From Tubulanus polymorphus (taxonomy: Eukaryota > Animalia > Nemertea), in the NCBI RefSeq assembly GCF_964204645.1, contig NC_134032.1, positions 16,613,572-16,677,571 on the forward strand: a stretch of 64,000 nt of DNA, read 5' to 3'. This document shows positions 9,001-61,719 of the stretch, one piece after another. Numbering within the stretch: position 1 is the stretch's first letter; each line of letters opens with the position of its first letter. The notes beneath the pieces are model-generated. The model had not been told where the DNA came from and made no database searches. It was given only the letters and a program-made list of their open reading frames with translations. Both the position numbers and the translations under genes were made by a program.

Positions 9001-11368
9001 ACAGGACCAACACCAGCGACATTTCAATGATTCAACCACCACAAAGCTATCGATGGATAGCTGTTTTGAATATTTATACATTTAAAACGTTAAGTCGCTA
9101 TAAGGACGATCAGGAAACATAATCAGTCCCAATTCACCGACATATATTACGATATATACAATGTACCAACACCAGCGACGTTTCAATGATTCAACCACCA
9201 CAAAGCTATCGATGGATAGCTGTTTTGAATATTTATACATTTAAAACGTTAAGTCGCAATAAGGACGATCAGGAAACATAATCAATCCCAATTCACCGAC
9301 ATATATTACAATATATACACAGGACCAACACCAGCGACATTTCAATGATTCAACCACCACAAAGCTATCGATGGATAGCTGTTTTGAATACTTATACATT
9401 TAAAACGTAAAGTCGCGATGAGGACGATCAGGAAACATAATCAATCCCAATTCACCGATACATATTACAATATATATATATACACAGAACCAACACCAGC
9501 GACATTTCAAAGATTCAACCACCACAAAGCTATCGATGGATAGCTGTTTTGAATATTTATACATTTAAAACGTAAAGTCGCAATAAGGACGATCAGGAAA
9601 CATAATCAGTCCCAATTAACTGATATATATTACAATATATACACTGAACCAACACCAGCGACATTTCAATGATTCAACCACCACAAAGCTATCGATGGAT
9701 AGCTGTTTTGAATATTTATACATTTAAAATGTTAAGTTGTAATGAGGACGATCAGGAAGCATAACTCGCCCAAACTCAGTATCACCCCATAACAGAGTGT
9801 ATTAATTAACACGCAGCAGCAAGCTGCAGTATTAAAGGAGGTCATCAGTGTTGTAACACACTGACAATTCAGTTTGTTTGTCACGTTTCTACATGACAAT
9901 TGAAGGAAGGAGGAGACTCCTGCACTCAATATCACCCCAAAACAGAGTGTATCAATTAACACGCAGCAGCAAGCTGCAGTATTAAAGGAGGTCATCAGTG
10001 TTGTAACACACTGATAATTCAGTTTGTTTGTCACGTTTCTACATGACAATTGAAGGAAGGAGGAGACTCCTGCACTCAATATCACCCCAAAACAGAGTGT
10101 ATCAATTAACACTCAGCAGCAAGCTGCAGTATTAAAGGAGGTCATCAGTGTTGTAACACACTGGCAATTCAGTTTTTTGTCACGTTTCTCATGACAATTG
10201 AAGAAGGAAGGAGGAGACTCCTGCACTCAATATCACCCCTGAACAGAGTGTATTAATTAACAACCAGCACCAAGCAGCAGTATTAAAGGAGGTCATCAGT
10301 GTTGTAACACACTGACAATTCAGTTTGTTTGTCACGTTTCTACATGACAGTTGAAGAAGGAAGGAGGAGACTCCTGCACTCAATAGCACCCCAAAACAGA
10401 GTGTATTAATTAACACCCAGCAGCAAGCAGCAGGATTATAGGAGGTCATCAGTGTTGTAACACACTGACAATTCAGTTTGTTTGTCACGTTTCTACATGA
10501 CAGTTGAAGAAGGAAGGAGACTCCTGCACTCAATATCACTCCAAAACAGAGTGTATTAATTAACACCCAGCAGCAAGCAGCAGTATTAAAGGAGGTCATC
10601 AGTGTTGTAACACACTGACAATTCAGTTTGTTTGTCACGTTTCTACATGACAGTTGAAGAAGGAAGGAGGAGACTTCTGCACTCAATATCACCCCTGAAC
10701 AGAATGTATCAATTAACATCCAGCAGCAAGCAGCAGTATTTAAGGAGGTCATCAGTGTTGTAACACACTGACAATTCAGTTTGTTTGTCACGTTTCTACA
10801 TGACAGTTGAAGAAGGAAGGAGGAGACTTCTGCACTCAATATCACCCCTGAACAGAATGTATCAATTAACATCCAGCAGCAAGCAGCAGTATTTAAGGAG
10901 GTCATCAGTGTTGTAACACACTGACAATTCAGATTGTTTGTCACGTTTCTACATGACAGTTGAAGAAGGAAGGAGGAGACTCTTGCACTCAATAGCACCC
11001 CAAAACAGAGTGTATTAATTAACACCCAGCAGCAAGCAGCAGGATTATAGGAGGTCATCAGTGTTGTAACACACTGACAATTCAGTTTGTTTGTCACGTT
11101 TCTACATGACAGTTGAAGAAGGAAGGAGGAGACTTCTGCACTCAATATCACCCCTGAACAGAATGTATCAATTAACATCCAGCAGCAAGCAGCAGTATTT
11201 AAGGAGGTCATCAGTGTTGTAACACACTGATAATTCAGTTTGTTAGTCACGTTTCTACATGACAGTTGAAGAAGGCAGGAGGAGACTCCTGAACTCAATA
11301 TCACCCCAAAACAGAGTGTATTAATTAACACCCAGCACCAAGCAGCAGGATTAAAGGAGGTCATCAGT
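1..11368. repeat. Compound macro-satellite: blocks of 159-bp monomer A and 153-bp monomer B, with a ~110-bp linker, five A/B cycles with variable copy number
   Basis: A period is 159 (tatacacag at 1, 160, 319); A blocks at ~1-1680, 3115-4010, 4893-5945, 7830-7930, 8353-9730. B blocks at ~1725-3010, 4050-4790, 5990-7730, 7970-8250, 9770-11368. The A-to-B junction (aaaatgttaagtt...gcataactcgcccaaactca) and the B-to-A linker (aataacctccaagtgcaag...gctgctacaat) recur nearly identically. Confidence 0.97.
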
Positions 11369-13058
11369 TATGATTTAGCAGTTATTTACCCATCGTGTTC
11401 TGTAGCACTTAACTTTCATCACTACCGATTGATTTAGCAGTGATTTACCCACAGTGTTTTGTAACACTTTACTTTCATCACCACCAATTGATTTAGCAGT
11501 AATTGATCCATAGTTTGAAATGCGCTGCATTCAATAAGCAATTTCAAACTTTTCTATTGAGGAAACCACAGCAAAGAACTAAATGTATACAAACAATACG
11601 TGTCTTATTTAATTGTTGATGAGAGAGGAGAGAGAGAGGAGAGGAGGCATGTACACCTAACACAACGTTTAAAACTCAATATCACAACCAAAACAGAGTT
11701 GAATGATAGCAAGCATCAGCGACATGTAGTTTTTCAAATAAGGAAGTAATCAGTATTGTAAGTCACATCTATTTGACAATTCAAGAAGGCAAGGGAGGGA
11801 GAAGAGACTCCAAAACTCAATATCACCCCTTAAACAGAGTGTAATGAGCAACATGCAGTAGCAAACAACAGTATTTGCCGCAGTAGCAAACAGCAGTATT
11901 TGCCGTTTTTAAAGGAGAAGAAAGGAGTATCTTCTGTATTTGATACTCATTTGATGTCATAGCAAGGCCATTACCGGGAGTTATAGAGAACAAAAGGAGA
12001 AGCCATGCCACCACAAGATTTTAATTGTCTATGATTTTGATATTGTATATAAAAATGGCACGATATATCACCTCGTAGCAGAGGAAGGAGGTATAACAAC
12101 CGCAAGATCAGTACATCTATCAATGTTTCATTATATTTATCATTGTTTCAAGACACCAACTTTCAGTGTTTTGTAACACTTTAACTTTCATTACCACCAA
12201 TTGATTTAGCAAAAATTCATCCACAGTGTTTTTATAACTCTTAACTTTCAGATTTGTGTCTTACTTTTTTCGTGATGAGAGAGGAGAGAGAGAAGTCTTG
12301 TAGGAAATGTAGCGATACACCTATCAAAGCTTTTTTACAAATGCAAATCAGTCTATTCTAGACTATGGACGTTTGTTGCTGGAGGAGACAAACTGTATTC
12401 CAATCGAAACCCTTTTAGCTTTTTCTTAGAGAGATCGAACCCACAAGACGTCTGGCAAAGGCTTCAAACATTTTGATAACTGTTAGCGCAGAGCCAATGA
12501 TAAAATCAGCATTTATCATCATGAAAACCAAAGCTGAAAACTGCAAACCAGTGAAGGGAAGTATGCACAATCGATGAGATGATTGTTAATTTAATGTAAT
12601 GGTATCAATGCTACGAATGTATGTAAAAAGTGAACGTAATAGTTTGAAACCAAGATTGAATGCATTCATTTTGTTGTATTGAATAAAGTGTGTTCCGATG
12701 AAAATGATTAAAATCGCCTCTAAAATAGTTTCAATTAAAAAATATTCCGGAATGTAATATACAGAAAAAATTAAAATCATAAATATATATATATATACAC
12801 TAATAAAAAGAAATGGATTACTATTTACAAATCTACAATATCTACAAGAAAAATAAAAACTACTATTTACAAATTTACAATATCTACAAGAAAAATAAAA
12901 ACTACTATTTACATATTTACAATATTTACAAGATAGAAATAAAAACTGCTATTTACAAATTTACAATATTTACAAGAGAAATAAAAACTACTATTTACAA
13001 ATTTACAATATTTACAAGAGAAATAAATAATACTATCTACATATTTACAATATTTACA

Positions 13059-31788: not shown

Positions 31789-32490
31789 AATGTTAGTCAA
31801 CAGCCGAAACGTCGTGGTTTCGTTTTAACGAATCATTTCATATATAATTCGAATTGTGGAACTTCTTCGATTATCTGCAGTGTACACGGATTAGAGTTTT
31901 TCATTCGAACTCAAACTTATATATAAAATTTCCAATTGTTTCAAAAGGATTTTTTTTTTGAAATAAATCCTCTTAAGACGGGCAATACACTTTTGGCCAG
32001 AAATATTAGAAAATATATAAGTTTTGATTTTGTCTAAACTGGTTTCAATGGATAATTTCTTTATCAAAGTCAACAGTCGATGAGTTTGAAGAATTATAGA
32101 GAAAGAAGTCATGAAACGCGCATAGTTTAGCTTAAGCTTTACCACTACAAACCGTGACTTGAAGTCGCACAGTTTTGATATCAATAGATCAGGCGAACGC
32201 GAGATTTGTAAAATGTTTTATCAATCCTGTACAGCATGATTCCCTAGAATGTACACCCCTGTGAATATGCCTGTAACGCATGTTTTAGAAAATAAATTAC
32301 AGGCTTTGTTGCACGGTAAACTGTGACGTAGCCGGGTAGAGAAAATTACAGGCATCATTTACAGTGCAAAATATGATTACATACTTCAGACCTTAATGTA
32401 GAAACTACTCTCAAGTCTTACATCAGAGTTCAACATTCACAGCTGACACGAGAGAGTATCGGCTTTAGTTGAATCGCAACGACAAAAACG

Positions 32491-33522
32491 ATGATAGTAA
32501 ATGAAACAGCCGCAGATCCTGCGCTGATTTGTTGCGGTAAATTCTGTGACGGTTCGGGCACGCTCTTAACATACAAGACGATCATGACATTAACTCGTGG
32601 CATATTTTATACAATCGGTATCATCTCAAACTGTCTCGCGTTTATCGTTATTCATCTGATGAAACTTAGAGGTAGCAGTATTCTATATTTGGAGATGTTG
32701 GCTGTAGCTGATTGTGTAAACTGTCTGACCGGTTTGTTCGGACGCGAGTTGATGATCGTTTCTTCCTCGTTGGAATTTATTCGCTACAATCACATTTATC
32801 AACAATACTTTCGTCATATTTATCTTTACGTGGACGCCATCTTCCAAATGACGACGACCACCAGTTCGTGGTTACTGTTCGCGTTGAGTTTAGACCGTTA
32901 TGTAGCTATTAGATTCCCACTGTCTGCTAGGAATATTTGCACGATTCGAAATGCATTTCGTGTTTCTGTTGCAATTTGGATTCTAACTTTTATTTCCGAT
33001 TTACCGACAATTTGGGATCTAGAAACATACTTTACGATGCCCGATCAGCCTTGTAAATATGTTGTACAAAGGAAATTCTTGCTTCAGAATAAAGAATACG
33101 CTTTGTATTACGATTTTGTATTCGGTAAAGTAGTGTTGAAGTTTATTCCGGGTTTGATTGTTTTAGGTTGTAATCTACATATGGCGATATTAGTTCGGTT
33201 GGCGGCTCGTCTGAGACACAAACTTCAACAAATCGACGTCAAAGATGAAGCTTCGACAAATAGTAAACAAGGACGACAAATAACTCTGACAATATTGGCT
33301 TTAAATATAGTATTTATGGTTGAATATGGAATGTCTTTAATAAACACATTTATACCGGCGATTTTACCCGATGGATACACATATCGCCCGTATCATTCGG
33401 GGCAGTTGTTACACGCTATTAATGCTATGATAAATTTATTCGTTTATTTAGGAATTCGAAGAGGTTTTGGAGAAACTTTAGTTTGGTTTTTGAGTTGTCA
33501 ACGTTTAGGAAACCGAGTGTAG
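32491..33522 (+). CDS. Intronless class A GPCR, FMRFamide-receptor-like / peptide-receptor-like, 343 aa
   Basis: Seven hydrophobic segments; TM1 GIISN, TM2 LAVAD, TM3 SLDRY.AIRFPL, TM4 Trp, ECL2 Cys, TM7 INLFVY, N-terminal NET sequon. Confidence 0.92.
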   Translation: MIVNETAADPALICCGKFCDGSGTLLTYKTIMTLTRGIFYTIGIISNCLAFIVIHLMKLRGSSILYLEMLAVADCVNCLTGLFGRELMIVSSSLEFIRYNHIYQQYFRHIYLYVDAIFQMTTTTSSWLLFALSLDRYVAIRFPLSARNICTIRNAFRVSVAIWILTFISDLPTIWDLETYFTMPDQPCKYVVQRKFLLQNKEYALYYDFVFGKVVLKFIPGLIVLGCNLHMAILVRLAARLRHKLQQIDVKDEASTNSKQGRQITLTILALNIVFMVEYGMSLINTFIPAILPDGYTYRPYHSGQLLHAINAMINLFVYLGIRRGFGETLVWFLSCQRLGNRV

Positions 33523-41000: not shown

Positions 41001-41984
41001 TTGTCGCTGCTTCAATGATATCCAACTTCACCTCTTCAGGTTCTGAAAAATAAACACAATTAATAAGTAATAAAGTAAGATGGAGAGCTCCTGTGGCGAG
41101 TGAGTGAATGGAGTACTCCTGTGGCGAGTGAGTAAATGGAGTACTCCTGTGGCGAGTGAGTAAATGGAGTACTCCCGTGAGAGTGAGTGAACGGAGTACT
41201 CCTGTGGCGAGTGAGTGAATGGAGTACTCCCGTGAGAGTGAGTGAACGGAGTACTCCTGTGGCGAGTGAGTTTACCTGTTTTTCTACGTTTCGTTGTTTT
41301 CCGTTCGAGATACGCGACTAAATCTTTACGATTTCTCGTCGCCGTGGCGATATCTAACGCCGTCCAATCGCTGGCGTTCGTTAGATTGACGTCTGCTCCC
41401 GATTCGACGAGCGTCTGAACGGTGGTCACATGACCGTTTAAAGCGGCTAACATCAACGCGTTGAGTCCGGCGGACGGAGTGCGATAATTAACGTCCGAGC
41501 CGCGGTCCGAGAGGAACCGTACGATCGTATCGTGTCCGTATTGAGCGGCGGCCATTAACGGAGTGAATTCACACCACGTTCCGGAGCTGTTCATATCGAC
41601 CCCGTTCTCTACGAGGTATCTAACGGTTTGTAGATGCCCCCCGCGAGCCGCCACGGTCAACGCCGACGAATTCAATCGATTCCTCGCGTGAATATCGGCG
41701 TTATTCTGCAACAATAGAGAAACTACGTTAAAATGTCCGTATCGAGCGGCTTGCATGAGCGCCGTCCAACCGAACGTGTTCTGTACGTCTAACGCCGCTC
41801 CTTTCATCAGTAATAACCGTACAACTCGTTCCTGTCCGTTCGCCGCCGCCATTTGTAACGCGGTATTCTCATCGGAATCGCGAGAATCGACCGGTAAACC
41901 TCGGTCCAGGATTCCTTCGACTGTTGATTCATTACCGCGGGAACAAGCTTCCAGTAATTGTTGTAATAGTTGACGGTGATCCAT
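35085..41984 (-). CDS. ANKS6: Ankyrin repeat and SAM domain-containing protein 6, 16 coding exons, 829 aa
   Basis: Exons 41984-41276, 41042-40998, 40894-40690, 40521-40424, 40117-39982, 39909-39879, 39766-39620, 39454-39323, 39112-38948, 38849-38578, 37798-37639, 36841-36784, 36047-35980, 35661-35545, 35336-35249, 35143-35085. All GT-AG and phase-consistent, 2490 nt in total. N-terminal ankyrin array; ANKS6-type motifs [18 protein letters not shown] and LKPVIPPF; SAM domain [40 protein letters not shown]. Confidence 0.95.
36156..36485. mobile_element. Harbinger-like MITE (330 bp) in an ANKS6 intron, carrying an internal tRNA-like segment
   Basis: ~45-bp imperfect TIRs (aggcagacgcaggaaaactctgttag... 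and ...ctaacagggttttccttcgccagcct); CAG flank at 36153-55 and 36486-88; minus-strand TGGCTCAGCGGTAGAGCG...GAGTTCCAATC at ~36228-36295. Confidence 0.75.
36517..36733. repeat. 27-bp intronic minisatellite
   Basis: atggattatcacttgccccggctgggc x8. Confidence 0.95.
37822..38410. repeat. 77-bp intronic tandem repeat
   Basis: aattcaYgagttttaggaacaat at 37901, 37978 and onward; each unit contains ccagttccaca. Confidence 0.95.
41086..41271. repeat. 28-bp minisatellite filling the first ANKS6 coding intron
   Basis: gagtactcctgtggcgagtgagt at 41111, 41139 and onward. Confidence 0.93.
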
Positions 41985-42009
41985 TATTTCCCGGCCTTAA
42001 CCCATTACT

Positions 42010-43975: not shown

Positions 43976-45054
43976 GTAGGAATGTGATTCACGCGAAATC
44001 GGAATTAGATTAAAATTCTACTCGGATTTTAATGCTGCGAAAATCTCAATTCTACGTAAGTTCAAATTTAGGTGGATCGAATTTAGTTGAATTTTGTAAA
44101 AATTAAAGAGTAACATTTTCTCTGAATTATGAACTATGCTCCCGGTATACTGAGTTAGGAGTTATACAGAGTTAGTTCTGTTTTTGTTTAATTGAGCAGT
44201 TCTAGGGTTGTGAAGTCATTTGTTTTAATTAAACTCAAAAATTAGAATTAGTTCAACTTAAATTAGAAGCTTATTTTATAATCAACGACTCGCGAATAGC
44301 TTTATTAATAATTAAACTATTTGGTGCAGAAATTTTCTCGGAAGATTGAGGTATTTTTAGTATAGATGATAGTGACCGGTGCTGCTGCTGCTGCTGCTGC
44401 GTGCCAGGTTGTCGGGGGTGGGGTGAATTTATTAGCACTGATCAATAGTCACGCACGCGCTATGCCTTTGATTTGCTGGGCTAATAAGCGTGAGTGAAGA
44501 TATCGCTACGGTAACTGGGCACAACAATAGCGGTTGTTGAATTCGAATGAATCATTGCGTCTCGCACACCTTTACTCATCTCACGATCAATTGATTTTTT
44601 CGAGCTTCCGCATCTTTTAAATAATGTAACACCTCATCGTTCACACGATTCACTGAATCGTGATTCGTAACGCGTTGATTCGTGAATCGGTCCCCCGGCG
44701 ACGATGGTATTCTCGCAAACAAATCAACAAACAAATCGGTTAAATTCAAACACGCTTGAATCTAGCACCAAGAAAACCTTTCACATCAGAACTCTTCGGG
44801 TGCAAAACAATTTTGGATCTTGTTTTAAAAGCTTTAGAGAAAGCATTGATGACTCCATCACAGTACTACTGGTACTCGGGGAATCGGTTCTACATTGTGT
44901 GTTACATCTCTGACTATTTGACTCTCTAAAGTCCACAGTTCCACTCAGTTTTGAACTCAGACTTGGTTAAGTTGTGGTAGTTATCATCATTTTGATGACT
45001 TATCCAAATGTTAACTTAATATGATTACAAATGGATTTTCTGGGAAGATTCCTC

Positions 45055-45450
45055 TAATGCTAGTGCTGCTGCTGGTGCTGGTGCTTCCAGTGCTGCTGCT
45101 GGTACTGCTTGTGCTGCTGCTGCTGCTGCTGCAAGTGTTGCTGCTGCTGCTGCTGCTGGTGCTGGAGCTGGTGCTGCTGCAAGTGTTGCTGCTGCTGGTG
45201 CTACCAGTGCTGGTGCTACCAGTGCTGGTGCTGCTGCTGCTGCTGCCGCCGCTCCTGCTGGTGCTAGTGTTGCTGGTGCTACCAGTGCTGGTGCTGCTGC
45301 TGGTGGTGGTGGTGCTGCTGCTGGTGGTGGTGGTGCTGCTGCTGCTGCTGCTAGTGTTGCTGGTGCTGCCAGTGCTGGTGCTGCTGCTGGTGGTGGTGGT
45401 GCTGCTGCTGCTGCTGCTAGTGTTGCTGGTGCTACCAGTGCTGGTGGTGG
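45055..45450. repeat. Cryptic (TGC/TGG)n trinucleotide repeat
   Basis: Low-complexity tract giving poly-Leu/Val and poly-Ala/Pro pseudo-ORFs. Confidence 0.9.
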
Positions 45451-46451
45451 TATTGTATCATCCTCCAATAGTAGTACATTCAGTAATCTAGTCAGAGATT
45501 AAGAGGCTGCAGAAATTGATTGCATCTGGGAATTGAATACTCGTTGTTGCAGCAGTTCTCTTCGCTGGACATAAATAACTAACATTGCTGCATGCTGGCC
45601 ATTTTATAGTCACTAGTAAAATAAGACATTAAGGGTAACCTTCACAAAACCGACTGCACAGTTTCACATCCATGATTACAAACTTTAATTTCCAAAGTTA
45701 TCCCTAAGGATAAATCCTTAACCTCGGCCCGGTTAAAAGACTTGGTATGAAAATTATTCCTAGGATCTGAGTCGGCTTTCATGGAAGTTATCTAAAGGGA
45801 TATAGATGTTTTATCAATACTGCTACATTAGCGATGATGAACTATATTGAAAATGTGAATAAATTATTCACAAAATTTTGCAATGTTGCCTTGTGTTTGA
45901 ACTGCTGTATAAACATTGGTTCCTTAGTTATTGATATCAACTATATATAATACACCTGCTGTAGAAGAGTTGGAGTTTTCAAACATGTTTGTTTGCATTG
46001 AACCCTGTTAAAACGCTGCTTCAATTCAAACATGCCTGATTTAATCAACATAGAAAATCTTGCGAGAGGCTTTCAATTAAACATGAAATGTTACTTCAAG
46101 CTCTCAATGATTATTTTGTGTTCAGTTTTGTTTGTTGCGAACGGTAAAATTTATTTGAAAATCTCAGAGTCTTCGAAAAGAACGCTCTGAAAATTGAATA
46201 AGGTTAAAAGTGACAGTCTTCCTTCCTGCTTCACCTGAGACATTTCTAATTGTAAATGAACTACAAACACCAGACATTAGACATTTCACTTCAGCTCACT
46301 TTCACAAACTGATCATCCACACTTCACAATAGTGAATGATAGAAGGAGGTTCAAGTTGCAGGAAATCTCCAGTATCATAAAAATGAAGCGCTGAAAAGGT
46401 TTCCAAGGTGAAAAAATCCTGATGATGAAAGGAGTATTTAAGTGGGTGTTA

Positions 46452-46743
46452 AGAGGGAATCACTGAGGTTGACGTACATGGTTCGTTGTATGTTGTACCG
46501 GTTTCATTTCAACCTCACAGTTTTAGAGGGAATCACTGAGGTTGACGTACATGGTTCGTTGTATGTTGTACCGGTTTCATTTCAACCTCACAGTTTTAGA
46601 GGGAATCACTGAGGTTGACGTACATGGTTTGTTGTATGTTCTACCGGTTTCATTTCAACCTCACAGTTTTAGAGGGAATCACTGAGGTTGACGTACATGG
46701 TTTGTTGTATGTTCTACCGGTTTCATTTCAACCTCACAGTTTT
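46452..46743. repeat. 73-bp tandem repeat x4
   Basis: agagggaatcactgaggttgacg at 46452, 46525, 46598, 46671. Confidence 0.95.
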
Positions 46744-47790
46744 AGTTTTATATCATTCGCAACCGAAACAGAATTGATTATATTTCCATTGCTAATGTTC
46801 GTCGTCGTCGGCGACCAGGCCATTCGTTATTCCGTATCGCCGAGTTGTCATGGTGATACGTTTCATGGTCCATTTCCTCGCGGGACTTTCAGGAATGTAG
46901 TTTCGATGATGATCGCGTAGTGTTACGTATATTGAATCATCTGTAACAGTTCTGCCTCAGTGAATATTGATACTGCTGTTGTTGTGGGGGTCACGTTATG
47001 GGCGCTATGAAGTACCCTCAAACTCCGTTCAGAAAACTCCACAACCACCGTTTACAATATTTCCATAGTTTTTTTAATCGTGGTACGTAGTTACCATGGT
47101 AATTGGCTGTTTGATTTATTTCTAGGGCTGATGTACTCTACGGTCTATCGAGTCCCTGGATTCTGTTGGAACCGAGGATATATTTTACAAATTTATCAAT
47201 TTGATAATCGAATTCGAAAAACAAACTTTTTTTTCATGCTTTTTGAAAGCTTTGTCTTAAACAGGGTAGGGCCAGTTATCTGGAAATCAGAGTATTTTCT
47301 TTTCTTGAAAAAAGTAATAATCATGAAATTATGTAAAAAAGCTAAGAATTAGGGATAAGTCAGGGAAAAATGTTGAGATTGCGCGGTATAAAATCAAACA
47401 GTTTCTGTCAATGTGTTATGTATTTGACTGTGTGAGTATATCAGATTCTTAGCAGATCAAGTCAGGGAAAACAATGTACATGTCAGGGAATAATCAGGGA
47501 TAAAGCGAGTCAAATATTAGAAGACGCCCCGTTGAAGCTGAATGGTTCAAATGAAATTTTTTTAAAGAATATTAGCTTTTTAAAAAATGTCTCTTTTTGA
47601 ATTTCGTTGCAGGTTTCCAATTGATCGGTGTGTAATGATTCAACAACCGGACACCAGTCTCTAGCGCGGCAACCAGTCCAAGATTGATCTATCAGACGGA
47701 TATAACGTATTTATTAATTTCTGTGGCTCCACGTTTCAAACCGCCAAAATTTCGTTCTCAAATTTCCGCGACAGTTTTCAAACGAAGACC

Positions 47791-48245
47791 ATGAACTATT
47801 TACGTCGGCGATTCAGCTCGTCCGATCTCCAGGGCGACTTGAAAGACGAAGAGGAGACGTCGATTTTGAGTTTCGCGACGAGGAAAGGTCCGTCGCCGAG
47901 CGCTCCGAGTTCTCCGTCTAAAAGTAGCGCCGCCGGCATTACTAGGGGACTATTTTCTTCAGCGACGGCACAAATACGTAGTAGTACGCAACCTGCTTAT
48001 AATAAAGATAGATGTAAATCATTATTGGTTATAGACGATCCACACACAGATTGGTGAGTACCCCCCTCCCCCCTTACCCCCCCAAATAGCTCACAGATTG
48101 TTGAGTCCCCCCTCCCCCCTTACCCTCTCCCTGTAGTTCACTGATCGGTAAGTAATCCCGCAGCAGCGGCGGCGGCGGCGGCGGCGGCGGCTGCTGCTGC
48201 GGCGGCGGCTGCTGCTGCTGCTGCGGCTGCTGCTGCTGCTGCTGC

Positions 48246-48290
<45 letters not shown>

Positions 48291-51200
48291 GGCTGCGGCT
48301 GCTGCTGCTGCTGCGGCTGCGGCTGCTGCTGCTGACGTTATCAGTTATCATAGTTGTGATGATCTTTATGTTGACTACTTATTCAAATGAAAACTTACAC
48401 TTAGTAAATTGTAAGTAATTGAATCAGAAATTGACAAATTGGGACTAAACAATATAGTAACGACTTGTGTGATAATATATAATCACATCGTTAACCTTGA
48501 AAGAATATCTTCAGCAATATCACTTTGCTGCAGTCAGGTGGAAGGGGACAGCAATAGAAATATTTTTGAATACAATCATTAAAATCCTCGGAATCTCAAA
48601 ATGAAATGAGAATCTCGAGTCTTATTAACCCAGATCATCTTGAAACGGTTGATATAGTAAATCAAGCACTATTCATTTTTATATTCACATCTGTTATTGT
48701 TATTATTCAATCTCACACAACGTCTCAAACTTCATACCGTAAATATTCACTCTATTCACTTCTCGCTATTAATTAATGATTTTCTGATGCAGATGAAAAA
48801 AGTTCTACAAATACAATGAAAACACACACGAGATATAGAGATATTGTCAGTCGTCACATATGTTCGAATATTAATTGCCTGTGTATGAGAACCTGATATA
48901 GATATAACTCATTACTCAGTCACCAGATACAGATACTTCAGTCTCATCTGATACTACAGTCAATCTCGTAAATAAATAATATCAGTTGACATCGCTTTAT
49001 AAAACGTGCACTTGAAATTACGTGTGTCTTTTATTGCGTCATCAAGTACAACCATTTTCAGGGTTGGAAAAACCTGGCTCCAGTTTTATAGACCGGGTAT
49101 CAAAGTTATCCCTAAGGGTAAATCCTTAACCTAGGCCAGGTTTTATAGACCGGGTATCAAAGTTATCCCTAGGGGTAAATCCTTAACCTAGGCCAGGTTT
49201 TATAGACCGGGTATCAAAGTTACTCTTAGGGGTAAATCCTCAACCTGGCTCCAGTTTTATAGACCGGGTATCAAAGTTATCCCTAGGGGTAAATCCTTAA
49301 CCTGGCTCCAGTTTTATAGACCGGGTATCAAAGTTATCCCTAGGGGTAAATCCTTAACCTGGGCCAGGTTTTATAGACTGGGTATCAAAGTTACTCCTAG
49401 GGGTAAATCCTTAACCTAGGCCAGGTTTTATAGACTGGGTATCACAGTTACCCCTAGGAGTAAATCCTTAACCTGGGCCAGGTTTTAAAGATTGGGTATC
49501 AAAGTTATCCTTAGTGGTAAATCCTCAAACCAGGCCCGGTTTTGTAGACTGGGTATCAAAGTTATTCCTAGGCGTAAATCCTTAACCTGGGCCCTGTTTT
49601 ATAGACCAGGTATCAAAGTTATCCCTAGGGGTAAATCCTTAACCTAGGCCAGGTTTTATAGACTGGGTATCAAAGTTACTCCTAGGGGTAAATCCTTAAC
49701 CTGGGGGACATCTACCACAATGAGAAACTATGATCCAGTTCCGCAGCTGTGAGTTAGAAATTTGAAACTGCGGCGAACGTGGTTCAGGTGATGAATCTGC
49801 AGCCTGCAATCTCCATCATCCGGACTTGAAAATTACTCTTGTGTCACTGAAGCCGAGCGCGAGAGCAATGATCAAAAAACACTAAGCTCCGTTACAAATC
49901 CATTTGATCTGATACAAATTTGATTGAGTCGAGTCTAGAGACTGAATTCAAACTGTAATCATTAGTTACACGACTGAACCAAGTCAACCACCACTGAACA
50001 TAGCACTGAATTAGTGTAATACTGAACATAGCACTGAGTGTGCAGGGAACTGAAATATCCATATCAGTTTGAAACCTTTATAGATACATTTCAATGAAAG
50101 TAGAAATAGATTTTGTTTCAATAAGAGGGTTTTTTTAGAACCCTCTTGGCCAGTTCCACGTCACGGTGGATTTTCTCTCGTGAGATGAAATGACCTATCC
50201 TGTATATCCTGCAAACAAAACTAACTGGAACCAGTTGCTTACACATCAGTTAACTGGATAAAAATACCATAGTTGTAGTGAATTTATTTGGCCAAGTATG
50301 TCAAGTTGTCAATGAAAAAAGAACGACCACTTTTTGAGTTTGAATGGTTTATTTCCAATTGAATTTACTAAACGCAAGTCATCACAACTTCAGCAGCAAG
50401 TTTAACTGGGTGACGCTGAAATCATTAAGCTTGTCCAAAATTTGTGTTGTTTCTAGTTTTTGTCTCGAGTCTTTTCACCTTTTGATACTGAGTTTTCGTC
50501 GGCCTCAGGAGAACTGCGAAAACAACCGACTTATCTTAGGATAATCCCAGGGTCCACCAGTGAACTGCTGTCAGATCAGCTTTACTGAAACTAGATGCAA
50601 GGTTTCAGGATTCTATCCGAGTCCCTCAAGAGGAAATCCTTGATTCTCTGAGAAACCAGACATCAGTCGAAGCGTCACGTGATCAATGATCAATATTTTA
50701 TTACTCTTAACAATCGGTTCGGTTACGCGTCTCCGAAGCAGTTGCTATAGCAACGTAGATGCGTAGTGGATTGTGCACTTTGAAGTGTTTGCGATAGATA
50801 GAAAGTTTATTAGCCTTGATTTAATGAACGCTTGAATTATTGATTGAATTATGTTCCGTGTTCAGTTCATGATTTGTTTTGAATTTGTAGTAATTTCGAG
50901 AAAAAAAATTCAGGACAACTTAAAACCACGTTAATTCTATAGTCAGTGAGATATCACTATCTTACTGATACAGATATCACAATCTCACAATCACTATTCT
51001 AACTCTAGCTCACAATCACTATTTTAACTCTAGCTCAGGGAAGTATCGCTATCTTACAGATACAGATATGAGTAGTTGTGTATGTTAATGCTATTCATAC
51101 CTCATAAAACCAATGAATTGGTCCCGTCTGATGCCTTTTAGTCATTTGTAATAAACTCTGATTTTTATGTTTTATGTGTACAGTATGAAGCTAACTGCGG

Positions 51201-54200
51201 CAGGTAAGATAACGACTGGTTATTGCCGCGGCTCCGTCGTTTTATAGACCGTGTTGACTTTCATTGGCTAATAAATACCCGTATCATAATAACACCAAAC
51301 AATGTATTATTGTCGCTATAACGATATCGGGAATATTTCTAGCGTTGATTGTTTGAAAAATTATCGACAACATGACATTCTCCAAGATTCAGTTCCACAG
51401 TTCTGAGGTTCCACAGTTCACCACAGTTCTTTCTCCAGTTCCACAGTTCTGCAGTTCACCAGTTCCACAGTTCACCAGTTCCACAGTTCTTTCTCTAGTT
51501 CCACAGTTCACGAGTTCTTCCTGCAGTTCCACAATTCTGCAGTTTTTGGGTTTGATAGAGTTGAACCAGTTTCAATAAGTCGCTGCCTTATGAATAAATC
51601 TGAACCGAGGGCTTCAGCATTAGATTCAATCGTCATTTTGTGTTTAATTACCAAACCCTGGAGTCAACTGAAAAACTGGATCCACGATCCACTTGCATCC
51701 ACAGTACTCTGTTAGCAATTAGTTTTTAGAGTTAAATTAGTTAATTATAATGTTTCGACCGTGGGCCATTCAGTTTCACGAAAATCTCCTAAATCAGTTT
51801 AAGATGACTGGAATTAATGGAGAGATTAGCTCGGTTTAAGAGTTACACATTATTGTGACTTCAAATCAAAAAACTGGGAAACCGTGAAACCGGGTAACCT
51901 GGGAACCTGGAGATTGTTGTCCTTCAGGTAAATCTATCTCGTGATAAGTCTAATGAAAGTTGAATGAAGCTGACAATACTGTACGCTCTGTTATAATGTA
52001 AAGCCTCTCAGCGATCGGACCCTAGATGACGGATTACTACGTGACGTGTCACATTTCACGCTATTATTCAGTGCTGTCTGCATCGACAAACTGCTGCAGC
52101 AACAGTTTTAACAAACGAAACAGTTACTGATCAAATTTTGAATATGAAGTGACACAATAATAACGTGTATTTAGGATATGATGAAATATCTTTTGGTTTC
52201 CGCCAATGAAAAATCAGTTATTCAAAGAAAAAACTGATGATTCAAAATGTCTGATCCTAGTAAGACTTGGATTAGAATCCTAAATGGCACATTGAAGTGA
52301 TGGCTGATCAAAATCTAATTTGAACTGTAGCGCACTAGTTGGTATAAGAGAGACATAATCCAGTAGTTCTTACTACTTTGAAAGGGGGAAACTTGTTAGG
52401 ATTCAACTGGTTTCAAAATACCTAAGTCACCATGTAGTTTAACACAGTCAGTCGCACCCATAAAAGATTAAATATTTTGCCCATAAATAGCCAATCATGC
52501 ACGGTTAGTGTTTAAGGCGTATTTGAAGTGTTTTGTAAGATTGGTAGGGGACACTCTGAGGAAGCTGAAGAAGGCCATTGGATCATAGATATTCCTGTTA
52601 CTAACTACTTATCCATTGTGGCACATTGCTGTGCGCTGCCACGTAGTAAGAGGGAGAGAGAGAGAGAGGGAGAGAGAGAGTGTGATGTAGTGTCATTATT
52701 TGTATTCTAATCAGTAGGAGACAAAATATCCGAGTGGAAAATCTATCAGTTACTCATGGGTCTAATTTCCGAACTACTTGATGTATCGATTCACCCAGAG
52801 ATGCTCTCATAGCTACTGCTACAATAGCTGCTGCTGCTGCTGATGTAGCTGGTGCTGGTGCTGTGGCTGGTGCTGGTGCTGTGGCTGCTGCTGCTGCTGC
52901 TTGTGCTGGTTACGGTGCTGGTGCTAGCACTGCTGCTGGTGATGCTACTTGGTACCCAGGCACTCATGGAGAGCGTGACACCAGCTACTACTGACTAACA
53001 GTCATTTCAATCCCACTAGTAAAATATATCTAACTCCCGGCAAAAAACAGTATCAGTATTGAGAGGTTGTTGAAATGTTGATAGGTTCCTGGGTCCTCGG
53101 TTGTGATATCTGTTTTGGTTTTCTAAGAATCTAAAAGGATCATCGTTATTGTGCTCTGGGAGGTTTCTAGAAATTAAATTCCATAGAACATTCTGATCTT
53201 CCAATTAGAATTCTATAAAGATTCCAAAAGGCCTGGTTTTTTGGTGTCAGATATATAATGGAATATTTCATGTACAGCTGCCCTCTAGGTGTACCCCCAC
53301 TGCACCAAGAATTCCCTCTAGGTGTACCCCCACTGCACCAAGTATTCCCTCTAGGGGTACCCCCACTGTGACAAGTACATTACACTAGTAAGGTACTTTA
53401 AAGTCTGGTATATGTCTCTAAATCTTATCATTTCCTTTTTTCAGGTCAAAATATTTCAGAGGTCGAAAAATATTTGGTGATTGGGACATAAGAGTGGAAC
53501 AGGTAGGTTAGTAACCACGGAAACACATGCTATAACCATGGCGATGATTTGAAAATATGTAATAGCGGTAACGATTGTTGTAGAAATGAGATACGAACGT
53601 GAAACTTTATTTTTGTATCGAGGCAAAGGAGTCGTGTTCATGGAATATATGAATGTTTTAGTAGAGATGAGGTGGGGTTAGTCTATTACAATAAATCTGT
53701 CGACAAAACATTGAGAATATTATCCCTTGGGAAATGTATTTGTTATTAGATGATGAAAAATTGCCTTCTGTTTTATGATGTTTTCATATTAATTTTACCC
53801 TGCGGATATCATTTCAAATACTCCTTAAAAATGATTATCTAAAATCAATGATTTTTGGTTTACCTTTGTCAGCGATATGAAGTTGGCATTGAGCCAATTC
53901 ATGTAAAATCGCGGTACGTTTTTTTATGTGAGCATTTGTTTCATTGGTTCTCGGTTTAAACGACGTATAATCGATGCGATTGAAGACATGGCGAACCTCC
54001 GTCGATGACATGGTCAACTTTGTTAAAATTCTACGAAAAACTGTTTTTGGCGGGAAAATTCTTAGCTCTCGCGTATAAAATTGCAATGACCTCGATTGGG
54101 GGGCGTTGTCTCTACGAGCGAATGTGATTGGCTGTTTTTGGGATATACGGGGATTCCGGCGCTACTAAAATAATTATGGGAAAGCCGGAATGGCGAACGT

Positions 54201-57200
54201 TTCATTGGACTAGGTGCCGTATACATGCAAATTTCAAATGCTCATTGCTGATGAGAATGTAATTATTATCCACCATAGGTAATGTTTCATTTTAATACCC
54301 GGAGATTGATTTGATTGACACTGAAGTACAAGCGAACATTCACTTACACAAGGCCTCCACGTGCGCGCGGAGTGCTATAGACTGTTGCATACACAAACAG
54401 ACGCTCGTACAGTATACACTACTATAGTGATACTGTAAACGCTGCTTGCTGGCGCGTCTGACATTTCATCAACAGAAGATGAGCGCTATGTTTTCTGTTT
54501 GATATAATTTATAATAAATTGTAATTTCTTGTGACCTGAAAATATTAAGCAGAAAACTACAAGTATAGGTCGAGGTCTGAATATTGTAGTAGTAAATTCC
54601 AGGATTTAAAACGATCTAATACGCCAATTTCTTACTGCGCCGGTTTAGATTCCGCGGCCATACATTGCAAGAGGTTTCCAAGACTAAATATTCAGCCACC
54701 CTCTGATATGTGACACCATGTGAATTTTGTTTGAATATTTTTTCATATTTTGAAAAATATTTCTTTGAACATATAAAATAGTTTCCGTGCCGCGCCTACC
54801 TGTACCCTACGAAATGTATCTTTTTGGTCTTATTTGACAACAAAATAATTCTTTGAGAAAGATGAAATACAACATAGAACTTTGAAGTCACGAATTAAAA
54901 AGATTTTTCAAGCAATGCCATTACCCCAAACAACCTCTAGCTTTCAAGGTAAACCACACTTTGCCCATGGGCAATTTATTATCATATGTTATTGATTTTT
55001 TTATAGATTTTTGTCATTTAACTTGAATGTAAAAAGACCCGAGACTTAAAGCGTGTTTTACAAACAATTCCTTTTAGGTTTTAGTGATTTAGATAAAAAC
55101 TATCGTTAATCATTAAGTGAGGATGTTTTGTTTCTTGAATATTTCAGGCTGAATTTAAAGAAATTAATCTAGCTGCTTACTCAGATTCAGGGACCATGGT
55201 AGACATACAAGTCAACAGAAATGGTACTAAAGTAGTCAGGTATGTAAATCAAACCCCCTTCCCCCCCCCTTCCGGATGTTGACTCCCTCAATAGGAACAG
55301 ATACACTGGCTGATTGTGTCCACTGGTTTAGGTACCAGTTGCTCAAAATTTGGTTCATGTTGCTTAGCCTTAGGTGGACAGAGGATAACAGATTATACAA
55401 AACCCGAATCTAAGAATAATCACAGCCTGAAATGTTTCCTCGAGGCAAAAATGATTTATTCAATATTTCGACTGTATCCTAATAGTTACCTTCAGGAATT
55501 CTGGCTCAAGTTGCGCAGTCATTAGATACTGTAAACTCCTACACTTATGATTAAAACAGTCCAGAATGTTTCCTTGAGCTAATGGTTTTTTTGACATTAT
55601 GAACATATCCTTATAGCAAGATGACTATTACGATAAAGGCGTCAAATAGATATTAGTAGTTCAAGGAAAAGTTTTAGACACTTTTCATCTTAGTATAGGA
55701 TTTTGTATTATGTTTAAAGAGTGTTTCATCCTGATGGTTATACAGGTTTATACAGATTGTCATCTATGTAGGTAAAGGACTGATTGGTTTCTAGCTGTGG
55801 TCTAGATTCTGAGATATAGACTGTGGGGGTTCTGACTGCGACAGTCGGAGAAAGAATAATGTGTTTCCTGTATTAACGCGTGTCAATTAGTTTTATTACC
55901 TGCGCACGTTGGGGGTGGGATACAGAAATATCTTCAGTTGCAGCCACAGCCGTGTGCGTGGAGCGAGAGAGTGAGTGTGATATCAATCGATAGATCAATC
56001 AATATATCTGAGAGAATACAATGAAATATCACCACACACACATATATATATATATAAATCAATGATATCAACTCAATTCTCGAATATATCCAGCACTAAT
56101 TGAATATCGAGTCAATTCAGAGAATTCTCAACGGAGACATTTTGAATATATTCCACATAAATGATTTCTTATATTTCATCTATTGTATAAACACTGCTGC
56201 TTCAGAAATGGCTGTAGAAGTTGGATATGGTAAAAATAAATTGATTCAATTCGGTCTCTAAAATCTTCAACTGAGTTTAGAAATGGGGTTAAATATAACT
56301 GTAGAACACTAGACAACAGGGGGTTGGTTTCACAATCTAAAGAAACATGACCCAAATCGTAACTGAAAACTGTGGAACCGGGTTCTGGGTTCCACAGATT
56401 CATTTCTTTCATTCGTTAATTCCAGTTGTTTTTTTTTCTTGTGAATATTTTCAGGTCGTTTAAGCCTGATTTAGTATTAATTCGTCAACATGTCCGAGAC
56501 GCCAACGAGGACTGGAGAAATATCATTTTAGGATTAAAATATGGAGGAATTCCTAGCGTTAATTCTCTACATTCCATGTATCAATTTCTAGATAAACCCT
56601 GGGTGGTAAGTATTTCACTTTTACAACTAGAAACAAAAATATTTTGAATATCGGATTTGAGTAGAAAAAGTGTTTGCAGTTCCACTTCACTTGCATGTGG
56701 ACCTGCACCAGTTCCAGACTCACAACTGTGGAACTGGGTCCAGAGTTCAGAGTTAACTCTAACTCGCAACAGTGGAACTGGATCCTGGATCCAGTTCCAC
56801 AGTCGTGAGTTAGAGTTAACTCTGAGTTAAAGTTAGTTCATTTTCGATGTTTTAACCCAGGGTCAAATCTTAACTCAGAACTGTGGAACTGGGCCCTGGA
56901 GTCAAAATCAATCAAGAACTGTAAAACTGAGTTAAAAAATATTCTGTTTTTCTGATAATATCTTCCCGTGCTACATGGCTGTCGGGATATTGGATTCACC
57001 TCGAGTAGAAGAAAACCGGCAGTGACACTTAACTCTCACGTCGACCTGGAACAGCTTAGAATTATTGAGCTCGAACGATTTAGTCTTAGCTGGCTGGTGA
57101 AGGTGCTGGTTGCTGGAGGTGCTGGCTGATGAAGAGATTGCTATTGACTGCTGGCTGATGAAGGTGCTGGCTGATGAGGGTGCTGGCTGATGAAGGTGCT

Positions 57201-60200: not shown

Positions 60201-61445
60201 GGTCTATACTTGTGGTTCCACAGTTACATAGGGGTTACCTGTCTCTGGTCTATACTTGTGGTTCCACGGTTATGTGGCTTTGATTTGACTCTGGATCCAG
60301 TTCCGCAGTTACGTAGGGGTTACCTGTCTCTGGTCTATACTTGTGGTTCCACAGTTACATAGGGGTTACCTGTCGCTGGTCTATACTTGTGGTTCCACGG
60401 TTATGTGGCTTTGATTTGACTCTGGATCCAGTTCCACAGTTACGTAGGAGTTACCTGTCTCTGGTCTATACTTGTGGTTCCACGGTTATGTGGCTTTGAT
60501 TTGACTCTGGATCCAGTTCCACAGTTACATAGGGGTTACCTGTCGCTGGTCTATACTTGTGGTTCCACAGTTACATAGGGGTTACCTGTCTCTGGTCTAT
60601 ACTTGTGGTTCCACGGTTATGTGGCTTTGATTTGACTCTAGATCCAGTTCCACAGTTACGTAGTTTACCTGTTAGAAATGAATTTGAATGTCTAAAGCTA
60701 TGATAAACTCAAAACTGTGAGGCTTTAGCCGGTTTAGTTCCAGTTCGTCGCTTGCTATCAGCTGGTTTTTTTTCTGATGTCAGTAATTGAAGTGGTTTTG
60801 GATTTGTTGAACAAACGCCAGTCTCAGGCTCATCATCATTTACACTCGAGTCCTCAATTTATCACGTTAATCAGTGAAATCACCTCCCGTAGGCACATTA
60901 AACATTCTCATCGGTTTACCTTTCAATTCGATGCTCTCTAAATATCTAGTTGTTCAAACTTGAGATGTGGCTGCTGCTAACATGGGCGCGGGCGCGGGCA
61001 TGGACCTCACTTTTCAGTATTTATTGTGTTTGTGTAATACTGGATTCAGTACCAGCAGCATACTGGGTTGAATATGACAGATATATTTGAGCGTTACTGT
61101 GGGTCTTACCCCCATTGATACACATTAATTTACATGTAAATGTGAATGGTGTTACTGAAGGTCTTCGGTTAAGTTGAAGCCCAGTCACTCTCGATATACT
61201 AACTTTCTTTATTTTTCAAATTGAACGTTAATACTAGCTTTCTTTATTTTCTAAATTGAATGTTAATACTAGCTTTCTTTATTTTTCAAATTGAATGTTA
61301 ATACTCTCTGCGAAGATATTTATTTAACTCCTGAAATAATCTGTATATATTTCAGTTTTCTCATCTGATACAAATACAGCGACGACTCGGTAAAGATCAC
61401 TTCCCGTTGATTGAACAGGCGTATTACCCGAACCATAGGGAAATG
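47791..61445 (+). CDS. SYN: Synapsin, coding exons 1-5 (gene continues beyond window)
   Basis: Exons 47791-48053 ([13 protein letters not shown] domain A; SAPSSP; [11 protein letters not shown]), 53445-53502 ([19 protein letters not shown]), 55148-55239 (AEFKEINL...NGTKVVR), 56455-56605 ([12 protein letters not shown]...DKPWV), 61356-61445 ([30 protein letters not shown]). GT-AG and phase-consistent, with the same intron positions as vertebrate synapsins. Confidence 0.97.
48161..48333. repeat. (CGG)/(CTG) microsatellite at the start of synapsin intron 1
   Basis: Continuous cgg/ctg triplets. Confidence 0.95.
49070..49703. repeat. 57-bp tandem repeat x11
   Basis: ttttatagaccgggtatcaaagttatccctagggg at 49084, 49141 and onward; related monomer at ~45690-45790. 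Confidence 0.95.
50741..50754. promoter_or_regulatory. RFX X-box (perfect palindrome); further X-boxes at 44502, 46844, 47090, 62228, 62901
   Basis: GTTGCTATAGCAAC fits the GTNRCY-AT-RGYAAC consensus. Confidence 0.6.
53686..54011 (-). CDS. Candidate nested antisense micro-gene (52 aa) in synapsin intron 2
   Basis: ACC-ATG at 54011, exon to donor AAG|GTAAA at 53864, acceptor ttttgtcgacag before 53696, stop at 53686, AATAAA at 53611-53606; upstream E2F and CCAAT motifs. Confidence 0.4.
57088..58140. repeat. Low-complexity compound repeat (gctggctgatgaagg / gattgctattgact)
   Basis: Shuffled short modules over ~1 kb in synapsin intron 4. Confidence 0.92.
58980..59507. repeat. 21-bp near-perfect minisatellite x25
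   Basis: gctgttttgaagctgtaagga. Confidence 0.98.
59884..60672. repeat. Two-subunit compound minisatellite
   Basis: Irregular alternation of ggggttacctgtctctggtctatacttgtggttccac and tgtggctttgatttgactctggatccagttccacagttac. Confidence 0.94.
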
Positions 61446-61719
61446 GTGAGTAATTTATGGGTGAGTTTACTTCATTGCTTTTTAGTCTTTTGGCTTCATG
61501 TCCTGTGCACACATTCATCAAACTTGATCTCATCATTATTTATCAATCAATATATACGATCTTCTTATGATCTTTTGATTAGTTAATTAGCACGCTAATT
61601 AGTAATTGTTGAAACTTAATCGTTGACAGTACTCGTCAATCGACTTGATATTTCACGTATTGATATATTCTTAGTTCTTTGAGAATTTGGTAACAGTTCT
61701 TATTTAGATTCAACTTTTA

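Follow-up and report, generated by a model that had tools for sequence, protein, structure and literature searches.

A probable AUU start codon in the synapsin gene of Tubulanus polymorphus, with its context recurring across protostome groups

Introduction

Domain A of synapsin is a kinase switch that has been studied in Aplysia, Helix, squid and Drosophila. In the synapsin gene of the nemertean Tubulanus polymorphus the reading frame stays open upstream of the annotated AUG, and this raises the question of where ribosomes begin the protein. The initial annotation of this DNA had proposed that an in-frame AUU acts as a near-cognate start and adds a conserved leader of 14 residues. To our knowledge, few non-AUG starts are kept across phyla.

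All coordinates given below are positions in the window, that is, the whole 64,000-nt stretch of T. polymorphus contig NC_134032.1 that was analysed, and the gene lies on its + strand. Judged by comparative sequence evidence, ribosomes probably start part of the synapsin at AUU 47749, which makes it 14 residues longer, and the rest at AUG 47791. We put the probability of this reading at about 0.84.

Results

The synapsin gene and its first coding exon

The gene around 47749 is a synapsin by its sequence. A domain A with an RRxS site is followed by domain C, and from ATG 47791 onward a protein comparison gave 100% identity to the NCBI synapsin-like model of T. polymorphus. The Pfam Synapsin_N and Synapsin matches were weak and both below the curated cut-off, because the query covered one exon only, and a structure database search with the first coding exon gave nothing useful.

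The first four to five synapsin coding exons fall inside the window. The first of them (47613..48053, +) holds the rest of the 5′ UTR, the leader, domains A and B and the start of domain C. Mapping of the NCBI model placed the next coding exon at 53445..53502 (+) and further exons, approximately, near 55145-55240, 56450-56600 and 61356-61460 (+). The NCBI model begins at the domain-A Met, whose AUG (47791..47793, +) has A at −3 and would start a short form; the leader is left out, as the initial annotation had expected. The Ser of the RRFS kinase motif in domain A (47806..47817, +) is residue 9 when counted from this AUG and residue 23 when counted from the AUU. The motif is assigned by homology as PKA/CaMK site 1, following the part of PMC1660579 covered here.

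The introns flanking the first coding exon carry GCT/GCG-type low-complexity tracts (45058-45451 and 48153-48342). Upstream of synapsin there are stop-free frames of 349 codons (32473-33522, +) and 322 codons (41028-41996, −), the latter overlapping a 28-bp repeat. At positions 1-11370 of the window, satellite blocks of 159 bp and 153 bp alternate, and the long ORFs there sit inside repeats.

The AUU codon, its context and the leader

The synapsin frame was found open from a TAG at 47662-64 onward, with no ATG between this TAG and 47791, which agrees with the initial annotation. An ATT at 47749..47751 (+), likely the start codon of a long form, is in frame with ATG 47791 and directly follows ACCGCCAAA (47740..47748, +), the putative initiation context recognised by its conservation among 12 divergent representatives. 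The base at +4 is U, not G. The leader, 14 codons with a periodic Phe pattern (47749..47790, +), is one residue longer than in most orthologues; its three Phe positions are kept, and its end has diverged to QTKT in T. polymorphus.

A leader profile was built from 19 homologous leaders, with the window's own excluded. When it was run over all six frames of the window, which hold 61,632 stop-free 12-mers, the window's own leader came first with 22.6 bits and the runner-up scored 8.7 bits. Because of this top score, the match of the leader to its homologues is not due to chance.

Stimulatory hairpins downstream of non-AUG starts are common but not required. When folding was compared with that of shuffled sequences, the downstream hairpin was not exceptional in the window (z −0.62). 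In the orthologues, three of five folded better than shuffles (z −2.4 to −3.1) and two did not.

Orthologous loci from metagenomes

One metagenome scan returned 74 loci, three of them without the exon, leaving 71 usable loci, which are not independent and mostly represent two annelid-like paralogues. The codon homologous to 47749 was ATT in 39 loci (37 found by pattern and two, with one extra residue, added by hand) and ATG in 14, and the leader was absent from 18. Neither ATC nor ATA was found at this codon in any of the 71 loci. Among the internal Ile codons of the ATT-type exons, ATT accounted for only 10 of 69. Group labels are loose, because loci were placed only by their nearest stored protein: L001 and L002 are bivalve-like, L067 and L071 arthropod-like, many others annelid-like, and the rest unplaced, including the ATT loci L062, L066, L068, L072 and L074.

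In the 12 divergent representatives, which were picked by hand and include the window, C at −4, A at −3, A at −2 and the ATT itself were invariant (12/12), G at −6 was found in 10, and base conservation faded upstream of −11. The C at −4 is a third codon position, and the residue encoded there is A, F, V or G. Since it is fixed under four different residues, the constraint acts on the bases. An FQTAK shared with squid was also considered as the start of an upstream protein; it was rejected, as C-A-A is fixed at the base level despite changes in residues −2 and −1.

The window equals the consensus of one annelid-like paralogue over all of −9..+3. In 21 distinct exons of this paralogue, the 13 leader codons after the ATT showed two amino-acid differences, both in L010, together with synonymous variation at most leader sites, and codon −4 was a stop in 13 exons. 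The leader is under coding-type constraint, and conservation begins at the near-cognate codon, except in insects and in the two bivalve-like loci, where it continues upstream of the codon. The proposed conserved leader of 14 residues was borne out: where an orthologue has retained the ATT, its leader is open and varies mostly synonymously.

After duplicates were collapsed and two loci with fewer than 30 upstream bases were dropped, 26 distinct ATT variants remained, and 21 of these lack a Met before RRFS. An in-frame stop was found 3-6 codons upstream of the ATT in 17 of the 26, and all 17 are without a Met before RRFS, so that domain A needs a near-cognate start in those variants. Between the stop and the ATT, 15 of the 17 contain no other near-cognate codon and 12 contain no AG. 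Where the upstream stop lies differs between groups. In all 20 listed distinct variants without a domain-A Met the next AUG is out of frame, which may simply follow from Asp codons. Relatives without this Met would depend entirely on the near-cognate start for protein that includes the kinase site. The 39 ATT loci, the fixed context and this obligatory role in many relatives support near-cognate initiation at the AUU.

In the second annelid-like type, whose nearest named protein is from Helobdella, this codon is ATG (14 loci). Among L003-L046, ATG and ATT types of synapsin were seen on contigs sharing assembly prefixes, for which reason they are likely paralogues in one animal. The leader-less loci fall into two types, a Watersipora-like one (four loci) and an MMNYLK one that is unplaced (14 loci), and these loci (L040, L044, L047-L061 and L073) mostly have stops a few codons before the Met. 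The suggestion that the mechanism is shared across protostomes thus holds in so far as ATT and its context recur across groups, but it is not universal, as 18 of the 71 loci are without the leader.

Protein records across invertebrates

Among the 39 records from the first homologue search, the domain-A Met is the first residue in 16. Another 15 have Met at leader position 1 or beside it, four have Ile at position 1, and the last four fit none of these types. The NCBI models of both nemerteans begin at the domain-A Met. Ile was found at leader position 1 in Elysia crispata and likewise in Patella. Two proteins were found in a homologue search with the first 45 residues of Aplysia synapsin.

In a search with an insect query, the best 120 of 455 matches were examined, and a leader with an intact domain A was recognised by pattern in 68; the remaining 52 were without domain A or had it spliced differently. 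Among these 68 arthropod leader records from the best 120 of 455 matches, position 1 was Ile in 38, Leu in 27, another residue in three and Met in none. Position 14 was Val in all 68 and none had the domain-A Met. Residue −1 was T, N or K, whose codons start with A, in 63 of the 68. Many insect records have domain A missing or unrelated sequence upstream. Deuterostome synapsins begin at or near the domain-A Met, according to the protein sequences in the part of the PMC2825198 supplement covered.

One protein record, P0087, has Thr at leader position 1, again preceded by A-K; an ACG start would fit this. In the lepidopteran models P0189, P0207, P0209-P0211, P0214-P0217 and P0220, NYLKR-SS.EALR stands instead of NYLKR-RFSS; this replacement of the kinase motif at the junction is either alternative splicing or a model error.

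The initial annotation had also suggested that leaky scanning makes a long and a short form. This fits species with a domain-A Met, but not the 21 of 26 ATT variants and the 68 of 68 arthropod records that are without it.

Published synapsin starts in Drosophila, Octopus and Aplysia

For Drosophila Syn, the FlyBase annotation gives CUG as the start codon (PMC4528330, Table S3). In the part of the PMC2825198 supplement covered, the long Drosophila isoform begins MNFSSF at the homologous residue, and the Drosophila palustris model has Leu there. This agrees with the numbering of the Drosophila kinase Ser as S22, equated with S6, in the covered part of PMC4749839. The annotated CUG is apparently at the same position as the window AUU. 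Edman sequencing of Drosophila synapsin, in the part of PMC1660579 covered, gave a CTG-encoded Leu first, with the peptide LKRRFS (LKR(G)FS). This Leu lies 16 residues downstream of leader position 1 and points against a start at position 1; the result might reflect a second CUG start, or a full-length form whose N-terminus was blocked. The Drosophila CUG that the initial annotation reported at about this position agrees with FlyBase and the homologous residue but not with the Edman result. Drosophila Synapsin resembles the window in having the same gene, the same leader, a long isoform at the homologous residue and no AUG ahead of domain A. It differs in its CUG instead of AUU, in being without the domain-A Met and in having two start positions in print, and the portions of the cited texts covered do not present the CUG as common with lophotrochozoans.

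For Octopus vulgaris and O. bimaculoides, a non-AUG Ile start of synapsin has been proposed, and in the parts of the paper covered the trait is called mollusc-only (Maiole et al. 2019, PMC6817820). The Octopus cDNA in its supplement has an in-frame stop upstream and no Met, and 20 of the 22 bases around its ATT, counted by eye, are those of the window. Octopus is thus like the window in its gene, its upstream in-frame stop, its Ile codon and the near-identical bases at the homologous ATT, and unlike it in the absence of the domain-A Met. The ATC named as the initiator is the first codon after the stop in the supplement and has T at −3. Relative to the conserved ATT, the published ATC is apparently misplaced by 8 codons in the upstream direction. 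An analysis of context or across phyla is absent from the parts of the paper covered.

In Aplysia, leader-bearing and domain-A-Met forms are both recorded as isoforms 2.1/8.2 (long) and 11.1/7.1 (short) in the covered part of the PMC2825198 supplement. The long ones, which are protein records, begin with Met, unlike the Ile of the window.

5′ UTR, splicing and upstream ORFs

A contig of run X2 (depth 4.4, run type unrecorded) covers 47613-47768 with zero differing letters and carries 77 loose letters before 47613. The 30 of these that are shown equal 44026-44055 exactly and occur nowhere else in the window. This points to the 3′ part of an upstream non-coding exon at 43979..44055 (+), with 43979-44025 deduced from length, which ends at a GTAAGT donor and is followed by a GT...AG intron of 3.6 kb in the 5′ UTR (44056..47612, +). 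On the acceptor side, a pyrimidine tract and CAG lead up to 47613. The spliced contig includes both TAG 47662 and the ATT. Since this TAG sits in the downstream exon, the upstream exon cannot supply an in-frame AUG, and the synapsin mRNA isoform of the X2 contig has none upstream of the AUU; the splice joint is that of a single contig and the statement covers that isoform. The in-frame ATG spliced on from another exon, of which the initial annotation had warned, was thus looked for and not found in this one spliced contig, where a TAG precedes the ATT.

A contig of run X3 is unbroken over 47686-47827. Two loose ends of the same run were rejected as splice evidence, as one hits 34 places in the satellite that opens the window and the other matches nothing. 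Of the four runs compared with the window, three are of unrecorded type, and X4, presumed to be RNA, gave no contig over the exon, which is neutral evidence.

It is very improbable that another exon brings in an in-frame AUG through an acceptor within 47665-47790. Five AG dinucleotides do lie between the stop and the AUG, and only one spliced contig was observed. However, both the X2 contig (47613-47768) and the X3 contig (47686-47827) run unbroken through this region, in 12 orthologous variants the stretch from stop to ATT offers no AG, and the Octopus cDNA contains the upstream stop.

The modelled 5′ leader holds three AUG uORFs of 1, 11 and 9 codons: a start-stop ATG TGA (43982-43987, +), an 11-codon uORF that spans the splice junction out of the synapsin frame (44032..47624, +), and a 9-codon uORF inside the X2 contig and in the synapsin frame (47635..47664, +), whose TAG at 47662-64 closes the frame before the leader. 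One contig of run X1 has the variant G47623A, which changes the TGA of the junction uORF (47622-47624) to TAA and so keeps the stop.

Two further routes to a long form can be considered. One is RNA editing to AUG, and the other is readthrough of TAG 47662 from the uORF AUG 47635. The in-frame uORF gives some basis for them, as do the editing within domain A and the readthrough of a C-terminal UAG that the covered parts of the literature describe for Drosophila synapsin. We consider both scarcely credible. A-to-I editing would require AUA, but all 39 Ile loci have ATT, and over 47613-47768 the X2 contig agrees with the window letter for letter. Readthrough is opposed by the lack of conservation of the upstream stop position across groups.

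The AUU start in T. polymorphus itself

It might be argued that T. polymorphus uses only its annotated AUG and that its leader is the decaying remnant of a start important elsewhere. The good context of AUG 47791, the one-residue insertion and diverged end of the leader, the loss of the leader in 18 of 71 loci and the Met starts of both nemertean NCBI models all fit this. But the context and first codons equal those of Octopus at 20 of 22 bases, −9..+3 fully equals the annelid-like paralogue consensus, the three Phe positions are kept, and the leader is the top profile match by 14 bits. We therefore regard a relic as unlikely and favour continued use of AUU 47749. The good-context domain-A AUG, the insertion and the QTKT end are nevertheless points against the long form here, which means that it could be a minor product in T. 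polymorphus. U at +4 and the unexceptional hairpin score of the window also count against the AUU start.

Possible second start further upstream

Another in-frame ATT, in C-AAG-ATT-G, lies 22 codons upstream of the AUU (47683..47685, +) and is a candidate additional start. This site was spotted after the fact, and CAAR-ATT occurs 37 times in 128 kb (both strands).

Upstream sequence of coding type was also seen in other groups. In the bivalve-like loci, L001:1423-1500 and L002:1088-1162 share 25 codons of coding-like sequence ahead of the ATT. Counted by eye, 15 of the 25 residues are identical, 7 of those via synonymous change, and the stretch begins at a GTG with A at −3 and G at +4. Of 78 arthropod leader records, 64 carry a CxxxC ahead of leader position 1. 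In 63 of these 64, K/N/T-Ile stands at most 8 residues before it and 15-23 residues upstream of position 1, and control windows further upstream, where conservation stops, had K/N/T-Ile in 6 of 42 and 2 of 23. K/N/T-Ile with CxxxC (P0134-P0248) is common to Hymenoptera, Lepidoptera, Coleoptera, a caddisfly, a flea and Drosophila palustris, as read from protein models, and no shared Met upstream of the CxxxC was found among the arthropod records. The insect K/N/T-Ile site is possibly a second near-cognate start giving a longer, Cys-bearing form, or else an exon boundary. Because conserved sequence continues upstream in holometabolous insects, the Ile or Leu at position 1 may be internal to a longer form there.

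The insect, L001/L002 and window sites suggest added upstream starts. That ATT 47683 is such an additional start, rather than the only one, is doubtful. In the stronger version, ATT 47683 would be the near-cognate start and Ile 47749 would be internal to a 36-residue extension. It has the same C-AAR-ATT context plus G at +4, and it would accord with the coding-like conservation upstream of position 1 in insects and the two bivalve-like loci. It is nonetheless highly unlikely, as the 22 upstream codons of the window align to no insect record and give no convincing bivalve-like match, an internal Ile would not require an invariant ATT and context, and the stops 3-6 codons upstream exclude an upstream start in 17 variants.

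Predicted properties of the leader

ALPS-like amphipathic helices combine a high helical hydrophobic moment with a polar face rich in Ser, Thr and Gly. The initial annotation had described the leader as amphipathic and Phe-rich. The three conserved Phe positions uphold the second part, but amphipathy depended on the scale and was not significant in the window, with p values for the helical moment of 0.52 and 0.68 on the Eisenberg scale and 0.19 and 0.08 on the Fauchere-Pliska scale. For 18-mers of related sequences, the Fauchere-Pliska moment had p<0.05 in 19 of 22 and the Eisenberg moment in 3 of 22, the former scale having been applied after the latter was mostly non-significant. The extra leader residue of the window shifts the helix register. 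A fold prediction with 30 sequences gave, at low confidence (pLDDT about 60), one helix over residues 3-22 that ends at the Phe before the kinase Ser. These models make it conceivable, at somewhat less than even odds, that the leader lengthens domain A into a single membrane-binding helix ending at the kinase site. A vesicle-binding helix in the leader is a guess.

Discussion

We infer the following course of events from the comparison. A share of the scanning ribosomes would initiate at AUU 47749, held by the conserved ACCGCCAAA context, and those passing it would initiate at AUG 47791 by leaky scanning and make the short form. The efficiency at the AUU would be sensitive to the stringency of initiation (eIF1, eIF5 and 5MP) and to uORFs. 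The AUU start probably dates to an early protostome; it would later have become AUG in some lineages and paralogues and been lost in others, and in Drosophila it is annotated as CUG.

Other near-cognate starts offer partial parallels. The GUG start of NAT1/eIF4G2 has, like the window, a near-cognate codon, a GCC-rich context and a purine at −3, according to the covered parts of PMC5714202 and PMC13754004. The window, ACCGCC-A-AA-ATT-T, departs from the NAT1 motif GCCGCCRNN-XXX-G by a mismatch at −9 and U at +4, and its context may still work in the same way. In those parts the NAT1 motif is described as reinforced in mammals, whereas the synapsin context is kept in invertebrates with a fixed core C-A-A at −4..−2. 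Human non-AUG extensions, including AUU-initiated PTEN, share with the window a coding-constrained leader, a near-cognate start and a downstream AUG (PMC3105428, PMC4892431). The covered parts of these papers describe them from mammal or vertebrate alignments, while that of synapsin spans several invertebrate phyla and appears obligatory in many.

Non-AUG starts of synapsin were already in print for Drosophila (CUG) and Octopus (Ile). Our literature search, conducted mostly without subscription papers, which may affect the novelty, found no synapsin start described as conserved across protostome phyla. What is new here is the exact AUU codon with its context across phyla, the switching between AUG and AUU, the losses and the hints of a second upstream near-cognate start.

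A broader reading, which we offer tentatively and as likelier wrong than right, is that protostome synapsin has been kept on a weak AUU for more than 500 million years, with its amount and N-terminus set by initiation stringency. Second near-cognate starts would have been added later in several lineages, such as the K-I before CxxxC in holometabolous insects, the bivalve-like GUG and perhaps AUU 47683; a single exon would then yield a ladder of N-termini that differ in their membrane anchors.

If the AUU start is true, many database models and constructs start in the wrong place (16 of the 39 records begin at the domain-A Met), the Octopus start in print shifts by 8 codons, and the two numberings of the Drosophila kinase Ser, S6 and S22, gain a testable cause. 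The AUU and AUG paralogues and the leader-less lineages are natural comparisons. An AUU start in a protein of presynaptic plasticity would link start-codon stringency to vesicle-pool control.
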